Shown: positions 5,587 through 57,355, counted from the stretch's first letter. The stretch: DNA of 64,000 bases from Candidatus Omnitrophota bacterium (GCA_043805415.1 JAZDHZ010000003.1:28366-92365), one strand, 5' to 3'. The notes: generated by a model not told the origin, from the letters alone. Made by a program: numbers and translations.

Positions 5587-6066
5587 ATGGCTAGGACATT
5601 AATTTTAATTGTGTACTGTTTTATTTTAGCTGGGTGTGCAACAGGGCAAAGAAGCGCAAATCCAGATATACAGAATATGCAGAGCCGCATAGCTTTTCTG
5701 GAAGATGAAGTTAATGCGAAAGATCAGGAAATCGGAAGCATGCGAAATGAATTAAGACAAGTTAAGCAAAAATATGTGATGAAATCTGATAATTCTGAAA
5801 TATCAGGCAAGAGGGTGAGTAATAAAGCGGTATCTAAAACCAAGGCAAACAATGCTCAGCTGGAAGAAATTATCCGAGTTGACGGAGTGACGGCAGACAA
5901 AGTCCAACTGGCGTTAAAAAAAGCAGGTGTTTATGAGGGGAAGGTTGATGGGAAAATCGGGCCTAAAACAAAAGAAGCGATTAAAGCATTCCAACGCAAG
6001 AATAATCTAAAAGTTGATGGCGTTGTCGGACGAGGTACTTGGGCAAAATTAAAGAAAAATCTTTAA
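5587..6066 (+). CDS. Lipoprotein with C-terminal peptidoglycan-binding (PG_binding_1-like) domain
   Basis: Lipobox LAGC near the N-terminus. Coiled-coil middle. C-terminal VQLALKKAGVYEGKVDGKIGPKTKEAIKAFQRKNNLKVDGVVGRGTW resembles the PGRP/PG_binding_1 repeat. Confidence 0.5.
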   Translation: MARTLILIVYCFILAGCATGQRSANPDIQNMQSRIAFLEDEVNAKDQEIGSMRNELRQVKQKYVMKSDNSEISGKRVSNKAVSKTKANNAQLEEIIRVDGVTADKVQLALKKAGVYEGKVDGKIGPKTKEAIKAFQRKNNLKVDGVVGRGTWAKLKKNL

Positions 6067-9445: not shown

Positions 9446-12400
9446 ATGAATAAGTTGTTATTTAAAACAACAATCTTTGTCTTAATTCAATTGCTTGTCC
9501 TTGGCAACATTGTCATAAAAACAGATAGTTTGTGCTTAGCCGCGGATAGGTTTTTCTTGGCAGAAGAACATAATCTATCTCCCCGGATAAATATAGATAA
9601 TGTCATATTAAATAATATGTTTATCAATGGCTTTCCAGTATTAGAGCCAGCTAATTATCAGCAAGATTATATTGCTCAAGATAGTAATTTAATGAATCGA
9701 ATAACCAACTATGCTCTAAGGAAAAAAAAGGAGAATGAAGGTAAGGGGATTTTCCGTCAAAATCCTGTTTATCTTATGCTTAAAAGCAGAATAGATAGAA
9801 TTGAAAAACGCGGCACACCGTATAATGTTAAAGCTAAACAAAGAAAAGAGTTGCTTAAAGATGTTAACAGATTAAAAAAGCTTTTTGGCGAGCGAATAAA
9901 GTGGATTAAACCTGGTTTAGCAAAAGAATATGATACGCAGATTAATGAGCTTGAGCGATTATTAGATGCAGTGCAAACTCAAGGAGATTGGGATGATTTA
10001 GTGGCTTTAGGAATTAAATTAAATAAGGCCTTATTAAAGCATGGACGTTTAGCTAAGGAACTGGCAGTATTTAGCGGGACTAGAAAAAAGAAAAAACTAC
10101 CAAACAGCGTTGAAAAAAAAGAAAAACCTAAAAAGCCGATAACTACCGCGATACAAAACCAGTCTGAACCAGCAAAAGAAATTCAGGAAGAATCATTGCC
10201 TGATCCAGAGCAGCTAAAGGATGAATTAGCCGCAGCTGAGTTAGAGATTCCTGAACCAGATGTTTTGAAAAAATACTTAGAGCTAAATGCCGGGCAATTA
10301 CCAAAATTTATTTTGGCTACTGGTTCACGCCGAAAGCATGTTTTAGAAAAAGCATTTGAAAAATTAAATGAAGTATATAATTTGGCTTATCAAGATTTGC
10401 CTTATGAGATAGCTTTTGCTTTCCAGGAAAAGATTGACCAATTAAAACAGCGAATAGATGCTGTACAAAAAGGAGAGTTCCCGGCGCTTAAACAAGATCT
10501 TAGAGCCTTGGAAACTGACCTTGTCCAGGCGATAGCAGACAATAATCAAGCAAAAGCAGCTGCCGCGTTGCGGCAAATAGAAAATATCGGGATCGCTAAT
10601 CCGCAGAATCAAGATAATCAGACTCCTCACGTTCCAAAGGTAAAAAAACCAACTGAACAGGTAGATTCCTTTGCTCAAGCAGTAACTTTATACGATCCGG
10701 ATAAAGTTAAACTGCGTTCACTTAAGGACGTGATTAATGAGTTGCAGGGGCAAATTAATTTACTTGATCAAATAATCAACGCCGAAATGCTCAACAGTAT
10801 GGAGCTGCCGGTCTATAATGCAAGAAGGGAAGCGGATGGACTGGTTATACAGATAAATTTCTCAGAGGCTTTGGAAAAAATCGAGGTTGGTAGTGACATA
10901 ATAATGGATCTTAGAGGAAAAATCTATTTGTTTAAATGCGATAAGCTGCTTAACTCCGGCGGTAATTTACTTTTAAAACCAGCAAATAAAAAAGGAGTGT
11001 TTCCGGATAATTTTCCTCAGGATATAAGCGGAGGAAAATTTGTTTATATGCCAAGCACTCATTCTGAAGATATGCAGAAAAAAACATTAGAAGCAATTAC
11101 GAATAAAATAGGCGGACAGAATCAAAGCACTGGGATAAAAGTCTTAGATTATTTTCTCAGAATTAAATCCGCGGCAAGGGATATCGAGGAGATCGATGAG
11201 TTAAAAGAAGCGATTGCTTATACCGATGGCTTGGACATGTTTCAAAAAGCAGCGGTAAATATGATTGTAAAAACTAAGTTTGGTTTGATTTTAGGCCCCT
11301 TCGGAACCGGCAAGACAAGTGTCTTACTTGCCGGAGCAAAGAATATTATTTTTAAAAATAAAAAACCGGTTTTCATTATTGCTCCTCAGCATAAGATCGC
11401 GGATGATATTACTTTAAAAGCAGGAGATTGCCAAATCCCGGTGCTGCGTTGCGGTAATAATCTGAGCAAATTTAATCCAGCAGTGCTGAACAAATACAGC
11501 CGTCACTCAGAAACAGGGCAAATAGAGTTTATGCGCAGGTATAAACAGCTAAATACAAGCAACGAAGATAATGGCTGTTTATTTGTGGGAACTGATATGG
11601 GCGCAAGCTTTGACTGGTTGATTAATCAATTGCGCGATCCGGAATCAGCCGCATTTTTAAAAGATGTTACTTTGATTGTTGATGAGGCTGCGCTGATTAA
11701 TTATCCGGAATTAATTACCGCTATTTATATGCTGCGGCCTGATGCTTTGATCTTAGTTGGCGATCATGTCCAGTTTTCGCCTTACAAATTAGCGGCAAGA
11801 TTCTCGAGTCGGATAATGAGTTCATTCCGGAGAAATATTTCGAAAAAAGCTATTTACCGGTATCATATCAGTTCATTTAAAGAACTGATTTCAATGCGGT
11901 TTAATAAAGTAAACCTGTTAATTAATTATCGAAATCCATGGATAAACGTTGATTTGCTTCAGGAATGGTATAAAGGTGTGCTTAATTTGCAGAGTATCAG
12001 CAAACAAAGAGGAGAGCTTATAGAAGAAGATACTTTTGTTATTGAAGATACTTCAACCTGGGAAAAGCAATCATTCGCGGAGAAGTATCATTATGGTAAT
12101 AGTTTTTGTAATAAAACAGAAGCGCTCTGGATTTTAAAAAGAATCAAATATTTTTTAGCTAAAGGCAATATCGCGGATGATATCACAATTATAACTTATT
12201 ATAATGGACAAATCCGGTTAATAAGCGATTTGATTGATGCTGATGGAGATATTTCAAAAGCGGATAGTCTAATATTAAAGCGGAATATTTTTACTCCCAT
12301 AAGTTTTCAGGGAGGAGAAAATAAGATTTTATTAGCTTCGCTGGTTAGAAGTGAAGCTGATACCACTGGTATGGGAGCATCCAGCACTAAAAAATCAAAT

Positions 12401-12670
12401 CCAGTATTTTTATCAGAGCCTGAATTCGCCAAGGCAGAAGCATTATTGGTACTACTAAGCCGGCATAAAGGTAAACTTGGTGTGATCGGAAACAGAGATA
12501 CCTTAGACGCGCTGACTAAACACCGATATCAGCGCATAAACTATTTATATTCATGCTTGTTTAAGCATAAAGATAAGATTAAAGCATGTTTAAATATTCA
12601 GAATATCGAATTAACAAGCAATCGAGCAGCGGATATTAGTCGGCATGATTTTATTCAGTCGGCGATATAA
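9446..12670 (+). CDS. Large protein: N-terminal hydrophobic signal/anchor, ~550 aa coiled-coil/K,E-rich region, C-terminal Upf1-like SF1 helicase core (AAA_11/AAA_12)
   Basis: The C-terminal half contains helicase motifs in canonical order: Q-like LDMFQKAAV, Walker A GPFGTGKTS, Walker B LIVDEAALI, motif III LVGDHVQFSPY, motif IV LINYRNPWI...WYKGVL, ITYYNGQ, FQGGENKILL and the GFLSEP...AEALLVLLSRHKGKLGVIGN arginine-finger region. The N-terminus MNKLLFKTTIFVLIQLLVLG is strongly hydrophobic. Confidence 0.6.
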   Translation: MNKLLFKTTIFVLIQLLVLGNIVIKTDSLCLAADRFFLAEEHNLSPRINIDNVILNNMFINGFPVLEPANYQQDYIAQDSNLMNRITNYALRKKKENEGKGIFRQNPVYLMLKSRIDRIEKRGTPYNVKAKQRKELLKDVNRLKKLFGERIKWIKPGLAKEYDTQINELERLLDAVQTQGDWDDLVALGIKLNKALLKHGRLAKELAVFSGTRKKKKLPNSVEKKEKPKKPITTAIQNQSEPAKEIQEESLPDPEQLKDELAAAELEIPEPDVLKKYLELNAGQLPKFILATGSRRKHVLEKAFEKLNEVYNLAYQDLPYEIAFAFQEKIDQLKQRIDAVQKGEFPALKQDLRALETDLVQAIADNNQAKAAAALRQIENIGIANPQNQDNQTPHVPKVKKPTEQVDSFAQAVTLYDPDKVKLRSLKDVINELQGQINLLDQIINAEMLNSMELPVYNARREADGLVIQINFSEALEKIEVGSDIIMDLRGKIYLFKCDKLLNSGGNLLLKPANKKGVFPDNFPQDISGGKFVYMPSTHSEDMQKKTLEAITNKIGGQNQSTGIKVLDYFLRIKSAARDIEEIDELKEAIAYTDGLDMFQKAAVNMIVKTKFGLILGPFGTGKTSVLLAGAKNIIFKNKKPVFIIAPQHKIADDITLKAGDCQIPVLRCGNNLSKFNPAVLNKYSRHSETGQIEFMRRYKQLNTSNEDNGCLFVGTDMGASFDWLINQLRDPESAAFLKDVTLIVDEAALINYPELITAIYMLRPDALILVGDHVQFSPYKLAARFSSRIMSSFRRNISKKAIYRYHISSFKELISMRFNKVNLLINYRNPWINVDLLQEWYKGVLNLQSISKQRGELIEEDTFVIEDTSTWEKQSFAEKYHYGNSFCNKTEALWILKRIKYFLAKGNIADDITIITYYNGQIRLISDLIDADGDISKADSLILKRNIFTPISFQGGENKILLASLVRSEADTTGMGASSTKKSNPVFLSEPEFAKAEALLVLLSRHKGKLGVIGNRDTLDALTKHRYQRINYLYSCLFKHKDKIKACLNIQNIELTSNRAADISRHDFIQSAI

Positions 12671-12804: not shown

Positions 12805-13644
12805 CTATTCAGATAGATGCTTGTGTAATTCATCGGCAAGAATGCCTATCCGCGCAAGAGACAAGTTTTCGCCGCGAATTGTAGGGCTGATATTAAGTTT
12901 TTCAAGAATTTCCAGGAGAATATCCTTTTTTAATTTCCAGCCAGCATTGGATAATCCATTGAGCAGAGTTTTTCTTCTTTGGGCAAATATCGCTCTGACC
13001 ACACTAAAAAATATTTTATCGGATTTAACGCTAATGCTTGGTTTATCTAAGATGGATAATTTAACCAAAGCTGAATCAACTTCAGGCTGAGGAAAGAACA
13101 TTGTCTTGGGGAATACTTCAAGAATCTCGGCTTTAGCGTAAAATTGTAATAAACAAGATAATCTGCCAAAATCTTTTTTCCCAGGGCCGGCAACAATCCG
13201 CTGGGCAACTTCTTTTTGCACAGTAATAAAGATACTGTCGATATATTCTTTTTGTTCTAATAAGTAATTGATTATCGGAGTTGTAATATAATAGGGCAGA
13301 TTGCCGATTACTTTGATCTTTTTACCTTGAAATATTTTTGTTAGATCAATTTTTAAAATATCACCGAGAATTATTTCAGCATTGGGATATGGTTTTAGCG
13401 CTTTTTTAAGAATCGGCTCAACTCTTCGATCTTTTTCAACAGCATAGAATTTGCCGGATTGCGCGGCAATCAGAACGCTCAAGTTCCCGATACCAGCACC
13501 GATTTCAAGCACTAGATCATCGGGGCAAAGGTGCGCGGATTTAACTATGGCATCAAGGGCAGCTTGGTCTGTAAGAAAATTCTGTCCCAGCCGCTTTTTA
13601 GCATGAATTTTATGCTTATCCAGAATGCTCTTGATGTGGGACAT
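12805..13644 (-). CDS. rsmA: 16S rRNA (adenine1518/1519-N6) dimethyltransferase
   Basis: KKRLGQNFLTDQAALDAIVKSA plus SAM motif LEIGAGIGNLS. Start chosen at MSHIKS (13644); the ORF-track frame extends further to 13713. Confidence 0.85.
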   Translation of the reverse strand: MSHIKSILDKHKIHAKKRLGQNFLTDQAALDAIVKSAHLCPDDLVLEIGAGIGNLSVLIAAQSGKFYAVEKDRRVEPILKKALKPYPNAEIILGDILKIDLTKIFQGKKIKVIGNLPYYITTPIINYLLEQKEYIDSIFITVQKEVAQRIVAGPGKKDFGRLSCLLQFYAKAEILEVFPKTMFFPQPEVDSALVKLSILDKPSISVKSDKIFFSVVRAIFAQRRKTLLNGLSNAGWKLKKDILLEILEKLNISPTIRGENLSLARIGILADELHKHLSE

Positions 13645-14674
13645 AAACTTTTGTTTTCTTTCTTGTTCGAGGCATATTATTTGCCATCTCAACCGCGAGT
13701 TTGATTGCTTCAATCATCGCGCTAGGATCAGCCTGATTCATTCCGGCAATATCAAAAGCCGTGCCATGATCAGGAGAGGTGCGGATAAACGGCAATCCCA
13801 GAGTTGTGTTTACGCCTTTATCAAAATATAAAGTCTTAAAAGGAATGCAAGCTTGATCATGATACATAGCGATTACAATATCAAATTCACCTTCTTTTGC
13901 TTTCCAGAACAAAGTGTCCGCGGGAAAAGGGCCTTCAACTTTTATTTTTTGAGCGCGGGCTTTTTTAATCGCCGGGATAATATGTTCTTTTTCTTCTGTT
14001 CCGAATAATCCGTCTTCACCGGCATGCGGATTTAAACCGCAAACCGCGATTCTGGGTTTTTTTATGCCAAAATGTGTGATCATTGTTCTATGCGCGGCAA
14101 AAATAGTATCCTGGATTTCTTTACGGGTGATTAAAGGCGCGACATTTTTAAGCGGAATATGGATAGTGACAAGCATGACTTTTAACTTACCACCCACAAA
14201 CATCATTCTCGCGTAACGGGCTTTAAACCTCTGCGCAAGAATCTGAGTATGCCCTTGAAAATGATGCCCCGCTAAATTCAAAGACTCTTTATTAATCGGA
14301 GCAGTTACCAGCCCGTCCAAATTCTTGCTTGAGCGGAGTAAAAGGCAGGCCATATTAATATACTCATATGCTGATTTTCCGCAGCGAGCGTCGATTTTAC
14401 CATAAGGAATTTTATAGGTCACATTTCCCAGGTTAATGAAGTTTATCATTTCTTCACTTAAGTTCAGCTTTCCAATATCAGAGAGGATGTGGAAATTAAA
14501 GGGTTTCATATTAAGCTGTCTTTGAATATGAGTAGTTACGCCATAATCACCAATTAAAAGAAAACTGGCAGATTCACGCAGCTTTTTATCGCTCAATGCT
14601 TTTAAAGTTATTTCTGCCCCAATTCCCGCTGGGTCGCCTAAGGTTATTCCAATTCTAACTTTTTTCTTTTTCAT
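13616..14674 (-). CDS. pdxA: 4-hydroxythreonine-4-phosphate dehydrogenase
   Basis: N-terminal RIGITLGDPAGIGAEITLKAL and overall PdxA-length protein. surA-pdxA-ksgA order as in proteobacterial operons. Confidence 0.75.
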   Translation of the reverse strand: MKKKKVRIGITLGDPAGIGAEITLKALSDKKLRESASFLLIGDYGVTTHIQRQLNMKPFNFHILSDIGKLNLSEEMINFINLGNVTYKIPYGKIDARCGKSAYEYINMACLLLRSSKNLDGLVTAPINKESLNLAGHHFQGHTQILAQRFKARYARMMFVGGKLKVMLVTIHIPLKNVAPLITRKEIQDTIFAAHRTMITHFGIKKPRIAVCGLNPHAGEDGLFGTEEKEHIIPAIKKARAQKIKVEGPFPADTLFWKAKEGEFDIVIAMYHDQACIPFKTLYFDKGVNTTLGLPFIRTSPDHGTAFDIAGMNQADPSAMIEAIKLAVEMANNMPRTRKKTKVYVPHQEHSG

Positions 14675-15635
14675 TTATTTTTACCTCAATTAGTGCTGAT
14701 TTTTTTAGTTTATTAATCCATTCATCCAGTTTTTTTTCAACTTTAGTTCCATAGAGCTTATTGCGGATTTGATCTTGCACGCTTTCAAGCGTAGCGACAC
14801 TGGCTGGTTTTTTATCTTCAATTCTAAAGATATAAAACCCAGAAGATGTTTTTATCGGTTTTGTGATCTTGCCGATTTCAAGCTTAAAGGCAAGGTCTTC
14901 AATCTCTTCGCGCAAAGAGCCGCGTTTCATAAAACCCATATCCCCAGCGTCAATAACATTCGGCGCTTCGGAATATTTTTCTACCATTTCAACAAACTCA
15001 ACCCCTTTTTGCAGTTGTTCGTATATTTCATTTGCTTTTTTTTCAACTTCTTCTTTGGGCGCTTGCTCAAAACTTAAGAATAAGCTTCTTAAACGTACTT
15101 GTTCGGGAATCGCGAACTTATCTTTATTCGCTTCATAGTATTCTAAGATTTCAGTGGGAGGAATGGATATTTTACTTAAGATTTCTTTGGAAACGGTTTT
15201 TTTAATCAGCAGTTGATCTTTGTATCTTTTTCTTAAATCAAGCAGGGTTACTTTTTGATTTTTCAGGATCTGATCAAACTCTTCAATAGTTTTAAAATTA
15301 GATTTTAATTCATCAACTAAGGCGTCGACTTCTTTTTCATTAACAGTAATTGTCTCATCTTTTTGCGCTTGCTGTAAAATAAGCTTGTCTTCAATTAGTT
15401 GATTTAAAACATCGTCTCTCGCGATTTTAACTTTTTCGGCAAGTTCGCTTCCTGCGTAAGTGCTTTTATATTGGATATAAATCGGAGCAAGAATTTCATC
15501 AACATCAGTTTGGGTTATAGCTTCACTGTTTACAACGGCAAGTATTTTTTGGGTGAATTCTGTTTGGGCAAAAACTGGCAATACAAGAAACAAGCAAAGT
15601 ATAATAATTATTGGGAAAGTAAATCCTCGGGTCAT
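14655..15635 (-). CDS. surA: Periplasmic chaperone/peptidyl-prolyl isomerase, SurA-like (parvulin domain)
   Basis: Signal peptide. SurA_N-like helical region. Parvulin-type segment near the C-terminus. Position immediately upstream of pdxA-ksgA. Confidence 0.55.
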   Translation of the reverse strand: MTRGFTFPIIIILCLFLVLPVFAQTEFTQKILAVVNSEAITQTDVDEILAPIYIQYKSTYAGSELAEKVKIARDDVLNQLIEDKLILQQAQKDETITVNEKEVDALVDELKSNFKTIEEFDQILKNQKVTLLDLRKRYKDQLLIKKTVSKEILSKISIPPTEILEYYEANKDKFAIPEQVRLRSLFLSFEQAPKEEVEKKANEIYEQLQKGVEFVEMVEKYSEAPNVIDAGDMGFMKRGSLREEIEDLAFKLEIGKITKPIKTSSGFYIFRIEDKKPASVATLESVQDQIRNKLYGTKVEKKLDEWINKLKKSALIEVKINEKEKS

Positions 15636-15739
15636 TCTTTTAATCCTTTAAAAAATCAGGTTTATTTAGATTTATAGTATAACATAAAATTATTGGAATA
15701 ACAAGTTTTGCGAAAAGCAGGCTGTTAAATTAGCGCAAG

Positions 15740-17611
15740 CTAATCAGAGGGGAGAGCTTTTTTGATTTGTTCGATGGCAGTGTTTAAAAGCTGGCAATAC
15801 AGGTCAAAACCCACAGCAAGGATAAACCCATGCTGCTGTTCTCCCAAGAGATTGCCAGCGCCGCGGATTTCAAGATCTTCCATGGCAATCTTAAATCCAG
15901 AGCCAAGAGCAGTGAATTTTTGAATAGATTTGAGTCTTTTTTTGGCTTGGGGGTTAAAAGTAGCGTGTTTTGGGGTTAAAAAGAAGGAATAAGCTTTTTT
16001 ATCCAGTCGGCCGACTCTGCCTCTTAACTGGTATAAATCAGCTAAGCCGAAGTTTTGGGCATTATTAACAATTAAAGTATTGGCATTAGGGATGTCCAGT
16101 CCTGATTCCACAATGGTAGTGGCAAGCAAGACATCAATTTTATGCTCAATAAAATCAATCATAACTTTTTCCAGTTCTTTTTCATGCATTTGTCCATGGC
16201 CAATGGCAATTCTGGCATCAGGCACAAGGGCTTGTAAATGTTCATGCATTTGGGCAATATCTTTAACCCGGTTATGAATAAAATAAACTTGGCCGTTTCG
16301 CTCAAGTTCATTAGTAATCGCGTTTTTAACCAGTTCATCATCAAACAAGCAGACGAAAGTCTCAATCGGCATTCTTTGCTCCGGCGGAGTATTAATCGTG
16401 GACATATCTTTAACTCCGAGCAAGGACATGTAAAGCGTCCGGGGAATAGGCGTGGCAGTTAAGGTTAATACATCGACAAGTTCCCGGATATGTTTAAGTT
16501 TTTCTTTGGCTTTTACCCCAAACCGCTGCTCTTCATCAATAATAATAATTCCTAATTCTTTAAACTGAATATCGTCAGATAAAAGGCGGTGCGTGCCAAT
16601 AACAATATCCACGCTTCCTTTGGCTAAATCCTCAATTATTTTAGCCTGTTCTCCCGCTGTCTTGAATCGGCTGAGCATCTGAACATTAACCGGAAAATCT
16701 TTTACCCGGGCGGTTAGATTATGGTAATGCTGTTCGGCTAGGATGGTGGTGGGCACAAGCATGGCAACCTGCTTATTATTCATTACTGCTTTAAAGGCGG
16801 CCCGAAAAGCAATTTCGGTTTTTCCATACCCCACATCACCGCAAAGTAATCTATCCATCGGCCGGGGCATTTCCATGTCTTTTTTTGTTTCCAGCCAGCT
16901 TTTTTTCTGATCAGGAGTTTCAGTGTAGGGAAAGCTTTTTTCAAATTCTTTTTGCCAGGGAGTCTTTGAGGAAAATGCTAAGCCGGATAAAGAATTTCTT
17001 TTTGCCTGAAGTTTTAGCAGCTCAAGCGCATAACTGGTAATTCCTTGTTTGGTTTTGTTTTTTGTGCTTTGCCAGAGTTTGCCCCCAAGTTTGTGCAAAC
17101 GCGGGGCATGGCCGGCAAAGCCGATATATTTTTGTAAAAGATGTTTTTCCGCTAGGGGAATATACAATTTATCATTATCAGCATATTCAATCTTTATGTG
17201 TTTTCCATTCTTAAGCATCACAATGCCCAGGTATTTGCCAATGCCATGGTCAAGGTGCACAACATAATCATTTTTTTCCAGTTCTTCAAACTTATTGATT
17301 GATACACGCTCGATCTCAATAGTATGCATTGCCGAGCGCTTAGGCAAGATAATCAGAGGGCTTTGATCATTTATTTTTTGGCCGGTGGTTCTAGAAAAAG
17401 TAAATATTTTCTCAATTTCATTAAACGCCAGCTCAATCCTTACCGGGCTCTCATAATTGATCGGATATATATCAATTATCGAACCGCGATGGGCAAAATC
17501 ACCTTTTTGGGCAATCGCATCTACTTGTTCATAGCCGAAATTAATAAATTGCTCAAATGTCTTGTGCGTGTTAATAGTTTGCTTGAGATAAAATTTTAAA
17601 GTTCTAAACAT
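15740..17611 (-). CDS. mfd: Transcription-repair coupling factor (Mfd)-like translocase lacking the N-terminal UvrB-homology module and C-terminal D7
   Basis: GDFAHRGSIIDIYP (UvrB/Mfd motif), DYVVHLDHGIGKY (RNAP-interacting CarD/TRCF domain), LLCGDVGYGKTEIA (Walker A), DEEQRFGV and DLEIRGAGNLLGEQQHGF...GFDLY (TRG motif). Only 623 aa, versus ~1150 for canonical Mfd. Confidence 0.65.
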   Translation of the reverse strand: MFRTLKFYLKQTINTHKTFEQFINFGYEQVDAIAQKGDFAHRGSIIDIYPINYESPVRIELAFNEIEKIFTFSRTTGQKINDQSPLIILPKRSAMHTIEIERVSINKFEELEKNDYVVHLDHGIGKYLGIVMLKNGKHIKIEYADNDKLYIPLAEKHLLQKYIGFAGHAPRLHKLGGKLWQSTKNKTKQGITSYALELLKLQAKRNSLSGLAFSSKTPWQKEFEKSFPYTETPDQKKSWLETKKDMEMPRPMDRLLCGDVGYGKTEIAFRAAFKAVMNNKQVAMLVPTTILAEQHYHNLTARVKDFPVNVQMLSRFKTAGEQAKIIEDLAKGSVDIVIGTHRLLSDDIQFKELGIIIIDEEQRFGVKAKEKLKHIRELVDVLTLTATPIPRTLYMSLLGVKDMSTINTPPEQRMPIETFVCLFDDELVKNAITNELERNGQVYFIHNRVKDIAQMHEHLQALVPDARIAIGHGQMHEKELEKVMIDFIEHKIDVLLATTIVESGLDIPNANTLIVNNAQNFGLADLYQLRGRVGRLDKKAYSFFLTPKHATFNPQAKKRLKSIQKFTALGSGFKIAMEDLEIRGAGNLLGEQQHGFILAVGFDLYCQLLNTAIEQIKKALPSD

Positions 17612-18062
17612 GATATAATATTTTATAACTAATGCGCCTAATACTCAATAGCTTGGTTAATAATCTTCTGCTTGCGATGAAGTTTCCTCCATCCTTCATG
17701 CAAAAGATGATAGATAAATTTTACGCACAGTATAAATTTTCTTGCTCAAAAACAGCAAGACCGGCTAAATATAAACTGTGTTTTTGGCGCTGCGGAACTC
17801 ACCCCGCCCTGGCGGGGTTCAGACAGTCCTCGCTTATAAGGTGGTGCCCAAAAACCCAATTTATATTTGCCTAAATTTATAAATGCTTAAAAATTTACCC
17901 ATCATCTTTAGAAAAAGTCAACTTGGGGGGGATAAGATACTTTGCCGAGTAATAAATCTGGACTGACTTATACTGATATAGTAGTATAATTCTATAATAT
18001 TTTCTCGATATTCACGAGGAGTAGAGCAGATGAGGAATATAATCACTGACAAATCTTAAATC

Positions 18063-18101
18063 AAGCAACTTTTTTTTATAAAAGGGAAGTTGCTTTTTTG
18101 T
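18063..18101 (+). terminator. Rho-independent terminator-like hairpin (AAGCAACTT...AAGTTGCTT plus T run)
   Basis: 9-bp stem and T-tract, read directly. Nothing annotated upstream on this strand, so it may end an sRNA. Confidence 0.4.
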
Positions 18102-18231
18102 TGGTGAGGAAATAAGAGGCTTAGGGAATTAGTGATAATAATAACAACTTCTAAATGGAGGTCTGACCCTGTGGTCTCCCAATAATTAATTCAGGGACTT
18201 TGGCTAATTTAGAATTAAAGAGGACTTTTGC

Positions 18232-18717
18232 GTGAGCAAAGATATGTTAAAAAAAACAACCATACATTTTCTTTTTGTCGGTATTCTATTCTCATTTGGA
18301 TTAGGGTGGATGCTAACTGCTATAGTCGGTATTTTGGCTGGCAATATATTCGAGATGCTGTTCAAAGGAGATCATTATTATTCTGCGAGTTTGCTTCTTA
18401 CTTTAATATCAATAGTTTTAATCGCTTTTTCGACTTATGTAGGCAATATGCTTTATTGCCGTGTGATATCTACACTTCAGCACAAAAAAGTTTTGCTTAT
18501 GTCTTCAGTTTTTTTCTGTATTCTTACTATTTTGATTTTAGGTGGACAACTGTTTTCTTCATATGATTTCGTGATGAATAATCTATCATTTTCCTATAGA
18601 AATCCAGGGAGGATATTTTTAATGTTTTCTCTTCCATTGATTAGAATAATTTTAATTCCTTTACAATATTTAATAATAAGCATTAGGTTTGAAAAGATAG
18701 AGGATAAATCCATTTAA
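18232..18717 (+). CDS. Small hypothetical integral membrane protein (4 predicted TM segments)
   Basis: Hydrophobic composition only. No recognisable motif. Confidence 0.35.
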   Translation: MSKDMLKKTTIHFLFVGILFSFGLGWMLTAIVGILAGNIFEMLFKGDHYYSASLLLTLISIVLIAFSTYVGNMLYCRVISTLQHKKVLLMSSVFFCILTILILGGQLFSSYDFVMNNLSFSYRNPGRIFLMFSLPLIRIILIPLQYLIISIRFEKIEDKSI

Positions 18718-18732
18718 TTTTCTTTAAACCAG

Positions 18733-18770
18733 GGTGGACGCAAAAAAACGGGCGGCTATCCAGCCGTCCC
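18733..18770 (-). terminator. Intrinsic terminator for fhs (GC-rich hairpin GGGACGGCT-GGAT-AGCCGCCC followed by T7 on the minus strand)
   Basis: Read directly. Hairpin plus U-tract immediately downstream of the fhs stop. Confidence 0.6.
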
Positions 18771-18816
18771 TACATGTGACTTTGCAACTTGTGTCTTGTG
18801 TCTAAATACAATTTGA

Positions 18817-20511
18817 CTAGAATAGTCCGATTGTATTGCCATTCTCATCAATATCCACATTCATGCCGCACGGGTTCGAGGGCAGCCCTGGCATGGTTCT
18901 CATCTTTCCGCAAAGCGGATAGATAAATCCTGCTCCAGCTGATACACGGATATCTCTAATCGGCAGTTCAAAATTTGTCGGCACGCCTTTTAATTTGGGA
19001 TCATGAGATAAAGACAAATGTGTTTTAGCCATGCATATCGGAAATTTATCAAAACTAAGCTCTGTGTATTGCTGTATTTTCTTTTCTGCCATGGGATGAT
19101 AAGTAACTCCGGATGCTCCGTACATCCTGGTGGCAATTGTATGAATTTTTTCTTTTATCGACATCTCAAGCGGGTAGAGGAATTTAAAATCATTAGGGGT
19201 ATTACAGGCTTTAATTACAGATTGGGCAAGTTCTGCCGCGCCATTGCCGCCTTGTAAATAAGCAAGACTGACAACCGCGTCTTGGGCTCCGAATTCTTTG
19301 GCTTTGTTTTTGATTAATTCAATTTCTTTATCCGTATCAGATGCGAATCGGTTGATTGCCACAACAACCGGCACACCGAATTGCCGGACATTTTCAATTT
19401 GTTTTTTTAAATTGCAGCAGCCTTTTATAATCGCGTCGAGGTTTTCATGGAAAAGTTTTGGATCCAGCGGACGGCCGGCAATTACTTCAAAATCATTGCT
19501 GTGCATTTTTAATGCCCGGGTTGAGCAAACCATAACCACACAATCAGGTTTTAAATTGCTGTAACGGCATTTTATATTCATGAATTTTTCCGCGCCAAGA
19601 TCAGCGCCAAAGCCGCTTTCTGTAACCACATAATCAGCAAGTTTTAAAGCCATCTGGTCAGCAAGGATTGAGCTGTTGCCATGAGCAATATTTCCGAACG
19701 GACCGCTGTGAATAAAGCAGGCAGTACCTTCAGTGGTTTGAACAATGTTAGGCATAATCGCGTTTTTTAATAATACGGTCATAGCTCCAGCGACTTTAAT
19801 ATCTTCCGGTGTTATGGGTTTGCCGTCATATGTAGTTGCCAGCATGATTTTGCCCATGCGTGATCTAAGGTCTTTTAAATTACTGGTTAGGGCAAGTATG
19901 GCCATGACTTCACTGGCTTCAGTGATTTCAAACCCGCTTTCGCGCAAAAATCCATTTTCTTTACCGCCTAAGCCAATTATAATTTCCCGGAGAAAGCGAT
20001 CATTTACATTTAAAACCCGGGGTAAAGTAATGCTGTGCGGATCAATGCTCAGAGTGTTTCCCTTGAATATATGGTTATCTAAAAAAGCTGCGCAAAGATT
20101 ATGCGCTATTTCTATGGCTGGAACATCGCCGGTTAAATGCAGATTAATATCTTCCATGGGCAGGACTTGTGAGTATCCGCCGCCGGCTGCTCCGCCTTTA
20201 ATTCCAAAAACCGGGCCAAGAGAGGGTTCTCGGATACAGGAAATTGCTTTTTTACCAATTTTATTCAGGCCAAGAGATAAGCCGATAGTAGTCAGAGTTT
20301 TGCCTTCTCCCAAAGGAGTCGGAGTAATGGCAGTTACATCAATATATTTGCCATTTGGCGCGTCTTTTAGTCGCTCAAGGATGCTCAGGCATACTTTTGC
20401 TTTATAATTGCCGTAAGGATGCAGTTCATTGCTTTGGATGCCGATTTTAGCAGCGATTTCACTTATTGGTATTAAGTTTATGGATTGAGCGATTTCAAGA
20501 TCAGTTTGCAT
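18817..20511 (-). CDS. fhs: Formate--tetrahydrofolate ligase
   Basis: TPTPLGEGKTLTTIGL is the FTHFS signature. Start set at MQTDLEIAQ; the ORF-track frame extends 20 codons upstream. Confidence 0.85.
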   Translation of the reverse strand: MQTDLEIAQSINLIPISEIAAKIGIQSNELHPYGNYKAKVCLSILERLKDAPNGKYIDVTAITPTPLGEGKTLTTIGLSLGLNKIGKKAISCIREPSLGPVFGIKGGAAGGGYSQVLPMEDINLHLTGDVPAIEIAHNLCAAFLDNHIFKGNTLSIDPHSITLPRVLNVNDRFLREIIIGLGGKENGFLRESGFEITEASEVMAILALTSNLKDLRSRMGKIMLATTYDGKPITPEDIKVAGAMTVLLKNAIMPNIVQTTEGTACFIHSGPFGNIAHGNSSILADQMALKLADYVVTESGFGADLGAEKFMNIKCRYSNLKPDCVVMVCSTRALKMHSNDFEVIAGRPLDPKLFHENLDAIIKGCCNLKKQIENVRQFGVPVVVAINRFASDTDKEIELIKNKAKEFGAQDAVVSLAYLQGGNGAAELAQSVIKACNTPNDFKFLYPLEMSIKEKIHTIATRMYGASGVTYHPMAEKKIQQYTELSFDKFPICMAKTHLSLSHDPKLKGVPTNFELPIRDIRVSAGAGFIYPLCGKMRTMPGLPSNPCGMNVDIDENGNTIGLF

Positions 20512-20589
20512 TGTGGCTCCTTTATTTATAAATAGTAAGTACATTATAAGTCCAGGGTTTTGATGTGTCAAGAAATTAACCTGATTTGA

Positions 20590-20719: not shown

Positions 20720-22225
20720 ATGTCGAAGAAAAGAAATTATAGTCTAATAACAATTGCCGGGATATTAGTATTGCTAATATTATTTTCCCAGAAATCCGGA
20801 TTTTGTCTGTCGCCGCAAATGCTGCTGGATTCTTCTACCGTACAAAAAGCATTTGATCAAAAAAATGCTGAAGATAAGATTCTGCCTGCCATATTTTGGC
20901 AGGAGAGTTCTGTCTATGGCCAGGGGGCTAAAGAGTTCATGATAATGGCGCTTAAACAGCTGGGTTATAAAATAAATGTTTTAGAAGATTTTGATCAGCA
21001 GGAATTGCGCAAAGAAAAACCACCAATTGCTATTTTAAATCCTGAGTCTGCTAAAGAACTCGGTCCAATGCTCAGAACTTTAAACCCCAACATAAGGATA
21101 GTTATTGTTTCGAGTTATTTATTTAGTGATGCTGAAATAAGTTCCATGGGCGGAGATTATTATTTGCAAAAAAACTACAGTGTTTTGGAATTTGCAAAAT
21201 TCCTTAAGTTTTTAAAGCAAGAGATTGCTTTAAATCGTAAACAAAATAAGAATCATAGCCATCTTGAATTGCCGGAATGGTCTGCATACTCTGTTGACTC
21301 TATGGATAATCATCCTCAATTGCAAGCGCAGCTAGGTGAAAAAGCGCTTGAATACCAGAGGAGATTACTGAAAAGAAAAACAGATGGAGCCTTATTTTTT
21401 ATAAAAACCCGTTATCAGCCAAGACAGCCTAATCAGCTGGATTTTATCTGGCAGACAAAAAATGAGGCATCAAGGGAAAACGCGGCATTTGCTTTGGGCA
21501 GGTTTATGGATGCTAATGTGTGTGATATTATATTGCCGGAAAAAGAGCAGGCAAAAGCCTTAGCTTCCTATATTGGAGCATTGCCGGAGGATATATATCT
21601 GGTTAGGGCAGCTAATGATTATAAGCTTAGCGATGAACAGGTTAGGCAAAAAACATTTAAAAAAGCTTTTACCCGTAACCTGGTTTTAGCAATTTTAATC
21701 AGAAAATATGATTTTCATGCGGCAAATCATAGTCCTATTTCAGATGCGCAGGTTGCGATGATGTTTGATAATGACCAGTCATTTCATAAGGATTTAATAA
21801 ACATAAATATGTTTACCCTGGCATTTATGGAGAATTTCTTTCCAACATTTCGCTATAAGAGCATAAACGCAAGGCAATTATTAGATTTTATTTCGGTTGA
21901 AGAATTAGTCGCTGCAGTTGATTTTTGTGAAAATAAACTGGCTATCGGCAAAGTCTTAGACGAAATGGCCTATCGGCAGGTGGAGTCATTTATCCACATA
22001 GAGTACGCAGAAGCCAGGGCCAAGACATTACGGGCTGATATGTTAGAATTTTTTCAGGAAATCCTTGGTTTTAACCAGGTGTTTAAAAAGGGCACGCCTG
22101 AATATGAACAATTATCCCAAGAAATTACATATATAAGAGAAGCTTTATCCCAAGAAAAAGGTAATCTTAAAGCAAAAAACAATCAATTAGACAATGGGCA
22201 GGACTTGCTATTGGAATCAATATAA
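20720..22225 (+). CDS. Membrane-anchored hypothetical protein with pseudo-receiver-like segment and atypical kinase-like (DxHxxN ... FDNDQSF) region
   Basis: N-terminal TM/signal. Residues ~100-165 resemble the second half of a REC domain (NPNIRIVIVSS...GGDYYLQKNYSVLEFAKFLKFL). KYDFHAANHSP and MMFDNDQSF resemble the catalytic and activation loops of PI3/4K/HipA-like kinases. Confidence 0.45.
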   Translation: MSKKRNYSLITIAGILVLLILFSQKSGFCLSPQMLLDSSTVQKAFDQKNAEDKILPAIFWQESSVYGQGAKEFMIMALKQLGYKINVLEDFDQQELRKEKPPIAILNPESAKELGPMLRTLNPNIRIVIVSSYLFSDAEISSMGGDYYLQKNYSVLEFAKFLKFLKQEIALNRKQNKNHSHLELPEWSAYSVDSMDNHPQLQAQLGEKALEYQRRLLKRKTDGALFFIKTRYQPRQPNQLDFIWQTKNEASRENAAFALGRFMDANVCDIILPEKEQAKALASYIGALPEDIYLVRAANDYKLSDEQVRQKTFKKAFTRNLVLAILIRKYDFHAANHSPISDAQVAMMFDNDQSFHKDLININMFTLAFMENFFPTFRYKSINARQLLDFISVEELVAAVDFCENKLAIGKVLDEMAYRQVESFIHIEYAEARAKTLRADMLEFFQEILGFNQVFKKGTPEYEQLSQEITYIREALSQEKGNLKAKNNQLDNGQDLLLESI

Positions 22226-27983: not shown

Positions 27984-28904
27984 ATGAATAAAGATTTAAT
28001 TTCAGGGTTTGATTTATCTGAGCAGGATATTAATAAAATATTTTCGCTTACATCAAAACTGAAAAAAAACAAAATAGACAGCTGTCTTAAAAATCAGACT
28101 ATTGGACTTGTTTTTCAAAAACCATCAGTGCGGACGCGAGTTTCTTTTGAAGTCGGCGCTCGTCAGCTGGGAGCAAATTGTTTATACCTTGCGCCGCAGG
28201 ATATTGAGCTGGGGAGCCGGGAGCCGTTAAAAGATGTAGCTAGAGTTCTTGGCCGCTACTTAGATGGAATTATTGCCCGGACTTTTTCCCATGACCATGT
28301 TATTGAACTGGCAAAGTACGCGGATATCCCGGTAATAAACGGTTTAAGCGATTTGTATCATCCTGCCCAGGCTTTAGCTGATATTTATACTGTATCTGAA
28401 CATACAACTAAGTTTAAAGGCGTGAAGCTTGTTTATGTCGGGGATGGAAATAATGTGGTTAACTCGCTTATGGCCATTTGCGCAAAAGTAGGCATGGATT
28501 TTATTGTGTCGACACCCAAAGGCTATGAGCCGAACAAGCTGATTTGGGCTAATGCTCTTAAAATTGCTAAGCAAAACAAAGCAAAGCTTGTGCACTGCTA
28601 TGATCCGGAAGAGGCAGTAAAAGGGGCTGATTTTATTTATAGTGATGTTTGGACTTCAATGGGACAGGAAAAAGAAGCAGTCAAGAGGATCAAGGCATTT
28701 AAGAATTATCAAATAAACGCAGAGCTGCTTAAACACGCAGGCAAGCAATATAAGATTATGCATTGCATGCCGATACACCGTGGGCAGGAAATGACGGATG
28801 AAGTTGTTGAATCCAAGCAATCGATTATCTTTGATCAGGCAAAAAATAGAATGCATGTGCAAAAAGCAGTGATGGCGCTACTTTTGCAAAGCAAAAGTAA
28901 ATGA
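27984..28904 (+). CDS. argF: Ornithine carbamoyltransferase
   Basis: STRTRVSFE carbamoyl-phosphate-binding motif and HCMP ornithine-binding motif. Confidence 0.85.
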   Translation: MNKDLISGFDLSEQDINKIFSLTSKLKKNKIDSCLKNQTIGLVFQKPSVRTRVSFEVGARQLGANCLYLAPQDIELGSREPLKDVARVLGRYLDGIIARTFSHDHVIELAKYADIPVINGLSDLYHPAQALADIYTVSEHTTKFKGVKLVYVGDGNNVVNSLMAICAKVGMDFIVSTPKGYEPNKLIWANALKIAKQNKAKLVHCYDPEEAVKGADFIYSDVWTSMGQEKEAVKRIKAFKNYQINAELLKHAGKQYKIMHCMPIHRGQEMTDEVVESKQSIIFDQAKNRMHVQKAVMALLLQSKSK

Positions 28905-29001
28905 CAAATGACAAATGCCAAATGACAAATAACAAACAGAAGTCAAATTAAAGCAGGGTAAATAAAAAGCAGAAAAAGAAAATCTTTGAGGGTTTAAGAG
29001 T

Positions 29002-29035
29002 TATCTTCTGAAAGAAGATAGTCGATTTATTTGGA
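29002..29035 (+). terminator. Perfect hairpin TATCTTC-TGAAA-GAAGATA followed by a T-rich tract in the argF-argG spacer
   Basis: Read directly. May act as an intra-operon attenuator/terminator. Confidence 0.35.
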
Positions 29036-29081
29036 TTTTGTCATTTGGATTTTGGAATTTCTTAAATAAGGAGCAAACGAA

Positions 29082-30257: not shown

Positions 30258-30606
30258 AGCAGCGTATAGCGATTAGCGTTTAGTGTATAGAAAAGCAGAC
30301 ACAAAGTCACAAGGACACCAGGTCACCAGGTCACAAGGACGGAAAAGCAGTTATGAATTACGAGTTATGAATGAAAAGCAAAGAGCTAAAACAGTTCATA
30401 AAGTTTATAAAGTAAAAATATCGATAGGCAAAAATTCTCTTTGAGCGGCGCTTTCGAACGTAATTTTGACATGGAAGTCAAAATAGTGAGAACGCGCGGC
30501 TGAGTCTGCACGATGCAGGCTCAGGCTTAGCGAAAAGACGTGTTTTTGCCGGTAAGCGCACGCAATACGCACGACGCAATACTTTAACGAATAAAAGGAA
30601 ATAATT

Positions 30607-31977
30607 ATGGCTAAAAAATTATGGGGCGGCAGATTTAAAAAGAACATTGATCGCGATTTTGAGGAGTTTTCAAAATCTATTCAGTATGATTACAAACTGG
30701 CCAGAATTGATGTGTTTCATTCAATAATTCATACTTTAGCTCTAGGCGGCAGCAAACTTTTAACCAAATCCGAGACTAAAAAAATCTTAGATGCTTTAAA
30801 TTCGATCATCAAGGATATTGACACTAAAAAATTCACGCCAGATATGAGCTCCGAAGATATTCATACGGATATTCATAATCGTTTGGAAAAAAAGATCGGG
30901 TTGCTTGCGGATAAAGTGCATACCCTGCGTTCTCGCAATGATCAGATTGTGTTTAATGAAAAATTCTATTGTTTAGATGAAGCTTTGAATATTCAGGGAT
31001 TGCTTAAAAGCTTAATTGACAGCTGTGTTGGTTTGATGAGAAAGTATGATAAACAGCCATTTATCGGCTATACCCATACTCAAAGGGCACAGGTGATATT
31101 ATTTAGCGATTATATGGTTGCTTTCGCGCATATGTTTGCCAGGGATTTTAAACGGATAAAACAGTTTTATGAATCAGTAGTGCCGTATATCGGGGCCGGA
31201 GCTTTGGCTGGGACATCATTGCATAAAGAAGAGTATTTTAAAGCAATTGATGATTTTTTAACATACAAACAACCTGGTTCGGGAAAAGTTAAATCTGTGG
31301 AAAATTCAATTGACAATGTTAGCGACCGGGATTTTATTATGGAATTTCTTGGGGGAATTTCGATTATCCAAATGCATTTATCGCGATTGTGCGAAGATTT
31401 TATTTTATATTCCACTCAGGAATTTGATTATCTTGATCTGCCTGAAGAATTTTGCACTGGCAGCAGTTTAATGCCGCATAAAAAGAATCCGGATTTTCTC
31501 GAGCTTGTTCGCGGATATACCGGACGAATTTATGGCAACCAGATATCTCTGATGACAACGATGAAGGGGCTTCCGATGTCCTATAATCGGGATATGCAGC
31601 TGGATAAAGAACCTTTATTTTCTTCAGTAGATACAATTAAAGATGAGCTGAAAATAATGGCAAAATTCATTAAGGGCATAAGTCTAAAAAAGAAAGTCAT
31701 TGAAAAAGCTTTAAAGGACGAGCGGCTTTACGCGACCGAGCTTGCTGAATTTATGGTATTTAAAGGAGTCGCGTTTAAGGATGCCCATGATGCAGTGGGT
31801 AGAATTATCCGCTATGCGGAAGATAATTCTATCGAGATTAAACATATGTCAGATGAATTGCTTAAATCTTTTCACGCTAAACTTAGTCAAAAAGATATTC
31901 AGAAAGTAATGCATCCTGAACACGCGGTAAGTTCTAAAAAATCTGTCAACAGAAAGGTGCCGAGAGTTAATGCATGA
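30607..31977 (+). CDS. argH: Argininosuccinate lyase
   Basis: Fumarate-lyase family (GSSLMPHKKNPD signature). Length 456 aa. Confidence 0.85.
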   Translation: MAKKLWGGRFKKNIDRDFEEFSKSIQYDYKLARIDVFHSIIHTLALGGSKLLTKSETKKILDALNSIIKDIDTKKFTPDMSSEDIHTDIHNRLEKKIGLLADKVHTLRSRNDQIVFNEKFYCLDEALNIQGLLKSLIDSCVGLMRKYDKQPFIGYTHTQRAQVILFSDYMVAFAHMFARDFKRIKQFYESVVPYIGAGALAGTSLHKEEYFKAIDDFLTYKQPGSGKVKSVENSIDNVSDRDFIMEFLGGISIIQMHLSRLCEDFILYSTQEFDYLDLPEEFCTGSSLMPHKKNPDFLELVRGYTGRIYGNQISLMTTMKGLPMSYNRDMQLDKEPLFSSVDTIKDELKIMAKFIKGISLKKKVIEKALKDERLYATELAEFMVFKGVAFKDAHDAVGRIIRYAEDNSIEIKHMSDELLKSFHAKLSQKDIQKVMHPEHAVSSKKSVNRKVPRVNA

Positions 31978-56348: not shown

Positions 56349-57049
56349 AAAAAGTTAAAACCACCTTACCGACAAAGACACATAAGATTCTCATGAGTAA
56401 TAAAAACTCCTGTTCTGCCAGAATCGATATTGCCCGTGAAAAACGTCGAGGATTTCCGGAAGTTATTTATTGCCCGGGTAAAAAAATTAATCAAATTAAG
56501 AAGATAGCCCAGTGCATTCTTGAACACAATGATACTTTGCTGCTTACCAGAGCCAATGATCAGATATATAAAGCAATAAAAACAATAAGCAAAAAAGTTG
56601 TTTATAATAAAGAGGCAAATCTTATTTATGTGGCCAATAATAAGAGAATTGTAAAAAAAGGGCTTATTCTTGTGATCAGCGCGGGAACAAGTGATATCCC
56701 TGTGGCAGAAGAAGCAGCGGTTACCGCGGAGCTTATGAATAATCGGGTTGAGCGGCTTTATGATGTTGGCGTTGCCGGAATCCATCGTTTGCTTGATGAA
56801 TCAGATATTCTAAAAAAAGCCGATGTGCTTGTTGTTGTGGCTGGTATGGAAGGGGCATTGGCCAGTGTTGTTAGCGGTATGGTGGATAAGCCAGTTATTG
56901 GGGTACCAACAAGCGTTGGATACGGAGCTAGTTTTCAAGGTATAGCGCCACTTTTGACAATGCTTAATTCGTGTTCTCCAGGAGTAAGTGTTGTAAACAT
57001 TGATAATGGTTTTGGCGCGGGATATCTTGCCGGATTGATTAATAAATAG
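56339..57049 (+). CDS. larB: PurE-like nickel-pincer cofactor biosynthesis protein LarB
   Basis: LVISAGTSDIPVAEEA is a PurE-class mutase/carboxylase motif in a ~236-aa protein. Lies directly upstream of a LarC homolog. Confidence 0.6.
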   Translation: MGLKKVKTTLPTKTHKILMSNKNSCSARIDIAREKRRGFPEVIYCPGKKINQIKKIAQCILEHNDTLLLTRANDQIYKAIKTISKKVVYNKEANLIYVANNKRIVKKGLILVISAGTSDIPVAEEAAVTAELMNNRVERLYDVGVAGIHRLLDESDILKKADVLVVVAGMEGALASVVSGMVDKPVIGVPTSVGYGASFQGIAPLLTMLNSCSPGVSVVNIDNGFGAGYLAGLINK

Positions 57050-57355
57050 CGTATAGCGCTTGGCTGATAGCTGATGGCTCATAGCTCATGGCTCATGGTC
57101 AAAAGCAGAGAACCAATTACTAATTACTAAACTCTAAATAAACCCAAATGACTAAAGTCAAAAGCACAAAAAGAAATATAAAAAAATTTAATTTTTATGC
57201 TGAGTTTATAATTTTGGATTTATTTTGGATTTAGAGTTTATGGTTTAGAGTTTTTTAAAAAACTATCGACTATTAGCTATTGACCATTGACCTTGCGAAT
57301 AAACGCAATACGCGATACTCAATACGCAATACAGAAGACTAAACGCAGGGGTTTT

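Follow-up and report, generated by a model that had tools for sequence, protein, structure and literature searches.

Mfd, or transcription-repair coupling factor (TRCF), is usually regarded as a conserved machine of about 1100-1200 residues, with seven domains and an activity that is gated by a clamp between D2 and D7. Here we describe a gene for a much shorter Mfd (mini-mfd), and the intergenic DNA upstream of it, in a 64,000-nucleotide (nt) stretch from Candidatus Omnitrophota bacterium (GCA_043805415.1, JAZDHZ010000003.1:28366-92365). This whole stretch is called the window, and coordinates are counted from its first letter.

In Escherichia coli the D2:D7 clamp masks the UvrA surface of Mfd and represses ATPase activity and translocation (PMC3025350; PMC3488230; PMC13453472). 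The UvrB-homology module (BHM) of the E. coli protein is essential for transcription-coupled repair (TCR) in vitro and in vivo whereas D7 is not, and Mfd without D7 (Mfd-deltaD7) still catalyses strand-specific repair, both in vitro and in vivo (PMC3025350). The UvrA-contact surface of D2 in this protein is formed by R165, R181 and F185 (Manelyte et al. 2010, PMC3025350). The Mfds of Buchnera aphidicola, Wigglesworthia glossinidia and Arabidopsis chloroplasts are without the whole module, D2 included, and in these cases UvrABC is absent (PMC3488230; PMC13453472). A 2026 study of Thermus Mfd argues that autoinhibition is not universal among Mfds (PMC13453472).

The Omnitrophota protein has in common with canonical Mfd (E. 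coli, 1148 amino acids [aa]; PDB 2EYQ, 6X26) the RNA polymerase-interacting domain (RID), the relay helix, D5/D6 with the TRG motif, and D2. At about 54% of the canonical length, however, it is without D1a, D1b, D3 and D7, and hence has no D2:D7 autoinhibitory clamp. The absence of D7 is shared with the engineered Mfd-deltaD7 and resembles the D2/D7 clamp mutants (PMC3025350; Smith et al. 2012, PMC3488230), so that a de-repressed ATPase/translocase and an exposed UvrA surface would be expected; but the deltaD7 constructs are laboratory truncations that keep D1a, D1b and D3, whereas mini-Mfd is natural and clade-fixed, with D2 joined to the RID by a short linker. Natural N-terminal reduction likens it to the BHM-less Mfds of Buchnera, Wigglesworthia and the Arabidopsis chloroplast, but these are discussed as keeping D7-based regulation and the Omnitrophota form is the converse, with D2 kept and D7 lost. 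Thermus thermophilus Mfd (978 aa; 6M6A; PMC13453472) is not autoinhibited and has a mobile UvrB-homology module but, unlike mini-Mfd, still has D1-D7. A literature search found no paper dealing with both Mfd and Omnitrophota, and databases label the short Omnitrophota Mfds simply 'transcription-repair coupling factor'.

Identity and domain layout of mini-Mfd

The gene and its parts are as follows.

15740-17611, minus strand: mini-mfd gene, 623 aa, ATG start, encoding D2, a linker, the RID, the relay helix with D5, and D6/TRG
17336-17611, minus strand: D2 (UvrB_inter, the UvrA-interaction domain), residues 1-92; PF17757 at residues 6-92, E=5.5e-18; predicted local distance difference test score (pLDDT) about 90
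17294-17335, minus strand: flexible linker in place of D1b and D3, residues 93-106; pLDDT below 50; the least conserved segment
17087-17293, minus strand: D4/RID, residues 107-175; PF02559 at residues 111-163, E=2.2e-15; equivalent to E. coli 470-547
15740-17086, minus strand: relay helix, then the D5 and D6 translocase domains carrying TRG, residues 176-623; DEAD at 232-393, Helicase_C at 432-536; equivalent to E. coli 548-988

The 15740-17611 open reading frame (ORF) encodes a genuine Mfd in which the UvrB-homology region is reduced, not lost. It scores 883.3 bits against the curated equivalog model TIGR00580 (NCBIfam 'mfd'), above the cutoff of 800, and 649.5 bits against the full-length E. 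coli-type model PRK10689/NF007966, below the cutoff of 1329; a phmmer comparison with Mfd in the PDB gave E=1e-173. Two blocks align with E. coli Mfd: residues 21-92 with E. coli 144-215 (D2), and residues 104-618 with E. coli 470-988 (RID, D5 and D6). Pfam and this alignment agree that D1a, D1b, D3 and D7 are missing, and D2 is all that is present of the complete module D1a-D2-D1b. The N-terminus also matches 4dfc_A, the Mfd D2 chain crystallised in entry 4DFC, and, in several UvrB structures, domain 2.

An earlier note on this DNA had described an ORF of about half the usual length with the CarD/TRCF motif, the SF2 translocase motifs and TRG, and each of these was found: the ORF itself, the motif YVVHLDHGIGKY at residues 116-127, the RID, DEAD and Helicase_C domains, and the TRG-region sequence EIRGAG, which like QLRGRVGR aligns with E. 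coli and is invariant in a 25-sequence family alignment. The note was also right that D7 is missing, there being no PF03461 match in the protein and the alignment stopping at E. coli residue 988 of 1148; the C-terminal end corresponds to E. coli residue ~988-993. Its statement that the protein lacks the UvrB-homology N-terminus holds for D1a and D1b but not for residues 6-92, which are UvrB_inter/Mfd D2. Within the RID, L133 is the equivalent of E. coli L499. The linker residues 93-106 have 50% aa identity with those of the relatives L003 and L004.

An AlphaFold2 model built from 25 family members (mean pLDDT 81.5) has a confident beta-rich domain at residues 1-92, disorder at 93-106, and a confident RID and motor. 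The best Foldseek matches of the model are Mfd structures (TM-score normalised to the query, 0.63-0.72), with a structure-based identity to E. coli Mfd of 32-34% over the whole model.

Conservation among relatives and operon context

The half-size architecture is ancient and conserved in Omnitrophota, in every relative found. In a search of a 5.8-billion-protein database, of which the 120 best matches were considered, all 120 homologs are 615-664 aa long, with 96-100% query coverage and identity down to 56%; they share one Pfam set that includes UvrB_inter, and several lie on contigs of 0.2-1.5 Mb. Those among them that carry an organism name are all Candidatus Omnitrophica/Omnitrophota except one, labelled 'PVC group bacterium', and the genera Aceula and Kappaea, named among the homologs, were confirmed as belonging to the phylum Omnitrophota. 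In a library of representatives at 50% identity, by comparison, the top 150 contain two short Mfds (640 and 642 aa) and the other 148 are 975-1332 aa; the nearest full-length relative comes from candidate division NPL-UPA2. The same length contrast was seen in a profile scan of contigs from named genomes, where the matches listed are mostly canonical Mfds of other phyla: among these matches the Omnitrophota ORF (L007) has 641 aa, against 1089-1365 aa in 15 complete non-Omnitrophota ORFs. M1, F2 and K6 are near-invariant in the 25-sequence alignment, and the assignment of the ATG start is therefore supported.

Downstream lies the rest of a conserved operon:

12805-15635, minus strand: operon partners surA-like peptidyl-prolyl isomerase (14655-15635; Pfam SurA_N/Rotamase), pdxA (13616-14674; PdxA) and rsmA/ksgA (12805-13713; RrnaAD)

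The order mfd-surA-pdxA-rsmA is kept in eight relatives (L001-L005 and L087-L089). The neighbour upstream of mfd varies among relatives, at an intergenic distance of 17, 47, 210, 264 or 495 nt. Convergent with rsmA in the window is a gene for a 1074-aa AAA_11/AAA_12 (Upf1-like SF1) helicase (9446-12670, plus strand), which has the same position in L001 and L002.

Decayed gene, paralog or working Mfd?

Could the short gene be the remains of a longer one? The earlier note had entertained decay of the N-terminal third of a full-length mfd in this genome, with remains in the gap upstream (17612-18231). It is true that this gap is the DNA immediately upstream of mfd on its coding strand and that it contains no long ORF, and the best tblastn match of D1a (E=0.58, 18181-18026) is on the minus strand and in frame. 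The match is, however, neither significant nor collinear with D2, and it overlies DNA with homology to what stands upstream of the membrane-protein gene in the relative L090, with no mfd seen in the stretch of L090 that was covered. In a tblastn comparison of E. coli D1a, D1b, D3 and D7 (Mfd sequence from NC_000913) with 14000-19000, nothing scored better than E ~0.1-0.6, so that neither D1-D3 remnants in the gap nor a D7 remnant downstream of mfd were found, while E. coli D2 in the same search matched inside the mini-mfd ORF at E=2.5e-11. An NCBIfam hidden Markov model scan of 10 of the 11 stop-free minus-frame gap segments of at least 20 aa was likewise empty at E up to 10. The intergenic distance is only 17 nt in L087 and 47 nt in L003, which therefore leaves no room there for a lost N-terminus; the 120 short homologs share the same start; and dN/dS (the ratio of nonsynonymous to synonymous substitution rates) is far below 1 across the whole gene. 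Recent pseudogenisation is effectively refuted, and we give it almost no credence. The possibility that relatives encode the N-terminus as a separate upstream gene was also rejected, since the ORFs upstream of mfd in L001, L002, L003 and L004 have no Mfd or UvrB domains. Very unlikely, too, is a specialised paralog, that is, an extra Mfd-like factor beside a canonical full-length mfd elsewhere in Omnitrophota: none of the 120 best motor matches is a full-length Omnitrophota protein, the short gene sits in a conserved housekeeping operon, and a D1a-D3 query from the nearest full-length relative gave 25 matches of which none is labelled Omnitrophota (a search of low sensitivity). The earlier note had reckoned with a full-length mfd elsewhere; none turned up in database searches made without the whole genome.

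The mini-Mfd is real, conserved and functional-looking, a variant of a known family that is neither a pseudogene nor a new system. The gene is probably a functional, lineage-typical minimal TRCF of Candidatus Omnitrophota, consisting of D2, a linker of about 14 residues, the RID, the relay helix, D5 and D6/TRG. Its most likely function, by analogy, would be that of a constitutively de-repressed, UvrA-recruiting minimal TRCF. If E. coli biochemistry is a guide, the RID would dock on stalled RNA polymerase, the RecG-like motor would move on upstream DNA and push the polymerase forward or off the DNA, and the linker-tethered D2 would present its UvrA-binding surface and recruit UvrA2B. Because D7, the clamp partner of D2, is missing, mini-Mfd is expected to be permanently de-repressed, as is the engineered E. 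coli protein without D7. We put at even chances the broader proposal that the Omnitrophota clade has cut TRCF to a minimal working core, namely D2 as the UvrA-docking domain, a flexible linker, the RID and the motor, from which D1, D3 and D7 are all absent.

Purifying selection is seen in every domain of mini-Mfd, D2 included, with the linker least constrained; against four relatives the dN/dS of D2 is 0.04-0.16, similar to that of the motor domains, although dS is near saturation and the values are approximate. Among the equivalents of the UvrA-contact residues R58, the equivalent of E. coli R181, is arginine in 25 of the 25 family sequences, and R42, the equivalent of R165, in 22 of 25; G43 (E. 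coli G166) and P56 (E. coli P179) are each kept in all 25. The earlier note had proposed a UvrA-independent Mfd-like translocase, in which mini-Mfd would only clear or rescue stalled polymerase and D2 would be kept for folding, for another partner or for control of the motor. We regard this as unlikely, though less so than the alternatives above. In its favour, the protein has lost D1a, D1b and D7, the residue at the F185 position is not conserved, and Mfds naturally devoid of the BHM are known from Buchnera, Wigglesworthia and chloroplasts, all without UvrABC (PMC3488230). But those UvrA-less cases lost D2 with the rest of the module, whereas here D2 alone is retained, matches chain 4dfc_A by sequence, is under purifying selection and has conserved equivalents of R165 and R181 (PMC3025350); D2 is the domain that carries the UvrA-binding surface. 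Several points nonetheless weigh against a UvrA-recruiting minimal TRCF. Saturation of dS in several of the comparisons leaves dN/dS approximate; the position of F185 is variable, with phenylalanine one residue later in 14 of 25 sequences; D1a and D1b, both absent here, belong to the module whose deletion gives the deltaBHM construct of E. coli Mfd, which is TCR-defective; and the D1a-D3 search from the nearest full-length relative (P0122), which found no full-length Omnitrophota mfd, is insensitive for so divergent a region. No uvr gene was found among the Pfam-scanned ORFs of the window or in the precomputed neighbour annotations of the relatives, which cover local neighbourhoods.

The upstream gap as a variable slot

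Three features frame the gap.

17620-17648, minus strand: promoter-like site upstream of the mfd ATG (TTGAGT-17-TAAAAT), inside shared upstream DNA
18232-18717, plus strand: small membrane-protein gene, divergent from mfd; its start is GTG (161 aa) or, more likely, ATG at 18244 (157 aa)
18817-20571, minus strand: fhs (formate-tetrahydrofolate ligase), the upstream anchor of the slot; 82% aa identity to the FTHFS gene of L087

As the earlier note had it, the gap has no ORF of at least 60 aa on the minus strand; on the plus strand there is one of 80 aa at 17632-17874. DNA similarity between the window and its relatives ends at the mfd ATG (17611) or at most ~40 nt upstream, and the ~35 nt before the ATG are the only upstream DNA common to the window, L002 and L003. 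One strand carries both fhs and mfd in L087, which is also the case in the window, and between the two L087 genes is a 432-aa GDSL-lipase gene that ends 17 nt before mfd; the fhs-mfd interval of the window (17612-18816, 1.2 kb) corresponds to 1974-3272 of L087. In the window this interval is unrelated AT-rich DNA (34% GC) with the membrane-protein gene on the opposite strand. The interval is a variable slot, a replacement hot spot, and not decayed mfd. Nor is the gap a decayed GDSL-lipase gene, a candidate that was rejected when the best tblastn match over 17612-18816 had E=1.8.

Rfam yielded no known RNA family in the gap: other families (SRP, 6S, riboswitches) gave nothing at gathering scores and only noise at E up to 10. 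A transfer-messenger RNA was rejected, with a cyano_tmRNA match of 15 bits against a gathering score of 70 and none found by ARAGORN. On the whole the gap is variable intergenic DNA of an ordinary kind; the most interesting thing in it is the previously undescribed structured dispersed repeat dealt with below.

It was also observed that mfd has no recognisable Shine-Dalgarno sequence (17609-17648) and that ~9 nt separate the end of the promoter-like -10 element from the ATG. The mfd mRNA may therefore be leaderless or have a very short leader.

A rod-like dispersed repeat

The repeat in the gap has the following parts.

17703-17909, minus strand (the better-folding one): ~207-nt rod-like foldback with nested inverted repeats, a member of a dispersed repeat family
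17801-17818, no strand assigned: GC-rich apical hairpin of the rod, with a compensatory C-G to A-U change in the L094 and L097 copies
17741-17759, no strand assigned: side hairpin on one arm of the rod (CTTGCTCAAAAACAGCAAG), kept in all four copies (helix 8)

The earlier note had drawn attention to a 7-bp all-GC hairpin in an atypical GC-rich patch. The patch is indeed atypical (66% GC at 17787-17848, against 37% for the window), and the hairpin sequence CCCCGCCCTGGCGGGG at 17802-17817 is present in it and unique in the window (0.02 expected by chance), but it forms a stem of 6-7 bp with a 4-nt loop, not the 7+3+6 arrangement given. Nor does it stand alone, for it is the apex of the ~207-nt foldback. 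With a minimum free energy (MFE) of -84.9 kcal/mol (z=-8.0) on the minus strand, compared with -67.8 kcal/mol (z=-6.3) on the plus strand, this is the only nested foldback of its kind in the 64-kb window.

Copies with 86-92% identity over ~210 nt occur in three contigs of one Joint Genome Institute metagenome, at 9346-9553 in L094, 2493-2704 in L096 and 3099-3323 in L097, with flanks unrelated to each other and to the window. They were found with a degenerate consensus of the two arms, six of whose nine matches were chance 21-mers; exact 22- and 25-mers of the rod core had no match in the genome and metagenome collections, and the phage and plasmid collections gave no rod match. The DNA upstream of mfd in L001, L002 and L004 has no hairpin resembling the rod, and L090, the nearest relative of the slot, is without the rod. 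The boundaries are sharp, marked by a 9-bp terminal inverted repeat (AAAGATGAT...ATCATCTTT), and there is no conserved ORF. The copies lie after fusA, between pilin-like and PilZ genes, and before yggT-trkH; their neighbours are housekeeping genes.

Non-coding imperfect palindromes of 100-200 nt, with short terminal inverted repeats and intergenic positions between housekeeping genes, are known in bacteria, for example the MITE-like ERIC/IRU and Correia/NEMIS elements. The rod is most likely a structured intergenic repeat of this sort, like ERIC or a miniature inverted-repeat transposable element (MITE), but the rod has no sequence similarity to any known family (Rfam, phage and plasmid collections) and no visible target-site duplication, its wobble pairs are strand-asymmetric, and four copies are known. 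A rather less probable but live reading makes it a multi-copy structured RNA gene transcribed from the minus strand of the window, not a passive MITE-like repeat. The consensus folds much better on that strand (-77.0 kcal/mol with 80 pairs, against -53.6 kcal/mol with 70 pairs on the plus strand), and at some 12 wobble or variable positions the minus strand has G-U, which on the plus strand would be C-A. Standard pairs make up 96.9% of the pair cells on the minus strand, against 39-50% in slid controls, two pairs are compensatory, no target-site duplication is visible at the junctions of any of the four copies, and no transposase lies near them. With four such close copies, however, covariation is not significant, since 39-47 of 500 shuffles do as well as the real data; the element has no conserved promoter or terminator of its own; in three of the four copies the strand that folds better runs antisense to the genes on both sides; none of the four has an Rfam match; and scattering over unrelated intergenic positions, with 9-bp terminal inverted repeats at the ends, is what MITE/ERIC-like elements typically show.

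The window has other repeats as well. A second dispersed structured repeat of ~129 nt lies at 30427-30555, with copies 90-95% identical at 5644-5772 and 8890-9013 of L097; it folds on the plus strand with an MFE of -56.5 kcal/mol (z=-5.2). In the window it is ~50 nt upstream of argH (30607-31977), and one of the L097 copies is upstream of hemB. This repeat may be a cis-regulatory leader, or a further element of the MITE-like sort. An intergenic patch at ~57040-57300 consists of short motifs in tandem and inverted arrangement (GCTGATAGCTGATGGCTCATAGCTCATGG..., TTTTGGATTTATTTTGGATTTAGAG...), and fragments of the patch (26-50 nt) recur at 84-100% identity in L088, L090, L094 and L096; one of the L096 fragments is ~80 nt from the rod. 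A cluster of direct and inverted AAATGACAAATG-type repeats occupies 28899-29060, between an ORF ending at 28904 and one starting at 29082.

A plus-strand promoter-terminator unit

Between the rod and the membrane-protein gene are two further signals.

17963-17990, plus strand: sigma70-type promoter-like site (CTGACT-16-TATAAT), 10 of 12 consensus matches, reading away from mfd
18063-18101, plus strand: intrinsic-terminator-like hairpin (18063-18095) with a U-tract (T-run to ~18101)

The earlier note had placed a plus-strand terminator at 18063-18101, and the hairpin and T-run are there; it is the sole terminator-like plus-strand hairpin found in 17400-18500 (0.6 expected by chance). The promoter, ~70 nt upstream of it, is conserved in L002 (TTGACG-17-TATAAT) and L090 (TTGACT-17-TATAAT), and the unit would measure ~105 nt, starting near 17997. 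L090 keeps the terminator hairpin, with pairing-compatible changes, and also a block immediately behind it; L002 does not keep the hairpin. In both the window and L090 the unit is upstream of the membrane-protein gene, to which it probably belongs and whose product is a 100% match to P0282 from an Omnitrophota metagenome-assembled genome at NCBI and has an 87% homolog of 157 aa, P0283. That a small RNA (sRNA) might end at the terminator, as the earlier note suggested, agrees with the promoter, the terminator and the layout conserved in L090. From its sequence signals 17997-18101 is plausibly an sRNA, but a leader or attenuator of the membrane-protein gene would fit equally well.

Some further observations concern this unit. 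In the window a 9-codon upstream open reading frame (uORF) with a good Shine-Dalgarno sequence, GAGGAG (18016-18021), ATG at 18030 and TAA at 18059 ends 4 nt before the hairpin, and L090 has a different, non-homologous uORF of 15 codons that runs into its hairpin; such an arrangement of uORF and hairpin recalls attenuation by a leader peptide, here of the membrane-protein gene downstream. L090 (180-222) and L002 (~700-760, minus orientation) have, upstream of the promoter that they share, runs of TTGTGAC(C/T)T-like repeats, which may be operator or UP-element-like sites. The window is without them, and there the rod lies ~50 nt further upstream.

Elsewhere in the window two plus-strand ORFs, of 501 aa (20720-22225) and 573 aa (50324-52045), have no Pfam family at E<=1e-5.

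Implications

The rod and the repeat at 30427-30555 show that structured elements, dispersed between genes and described in no database, occur as families in these small genomes. For annotation, length-based pseudogene filters could wrongly flag short mfd genes such as this one. If the minimal-core proposal is true, a free-living lineage would carry out transcription-coupled repair with the D2:D7 clamp and the other parts of the UvrB-homology module dispensable, and the protein, whose compactness may suit structural studies in general, would offer a small scaffold of natural origin on which to study the structure of the Mfd-UvrA hand-off. A phylum whose Mfd has D2, the RID and the motor only is a natural experiment on which domains transcription-repair coupling needs, and the Omnitrophota form also informs whether permanent exposure of the UvrA surface is tolerable.

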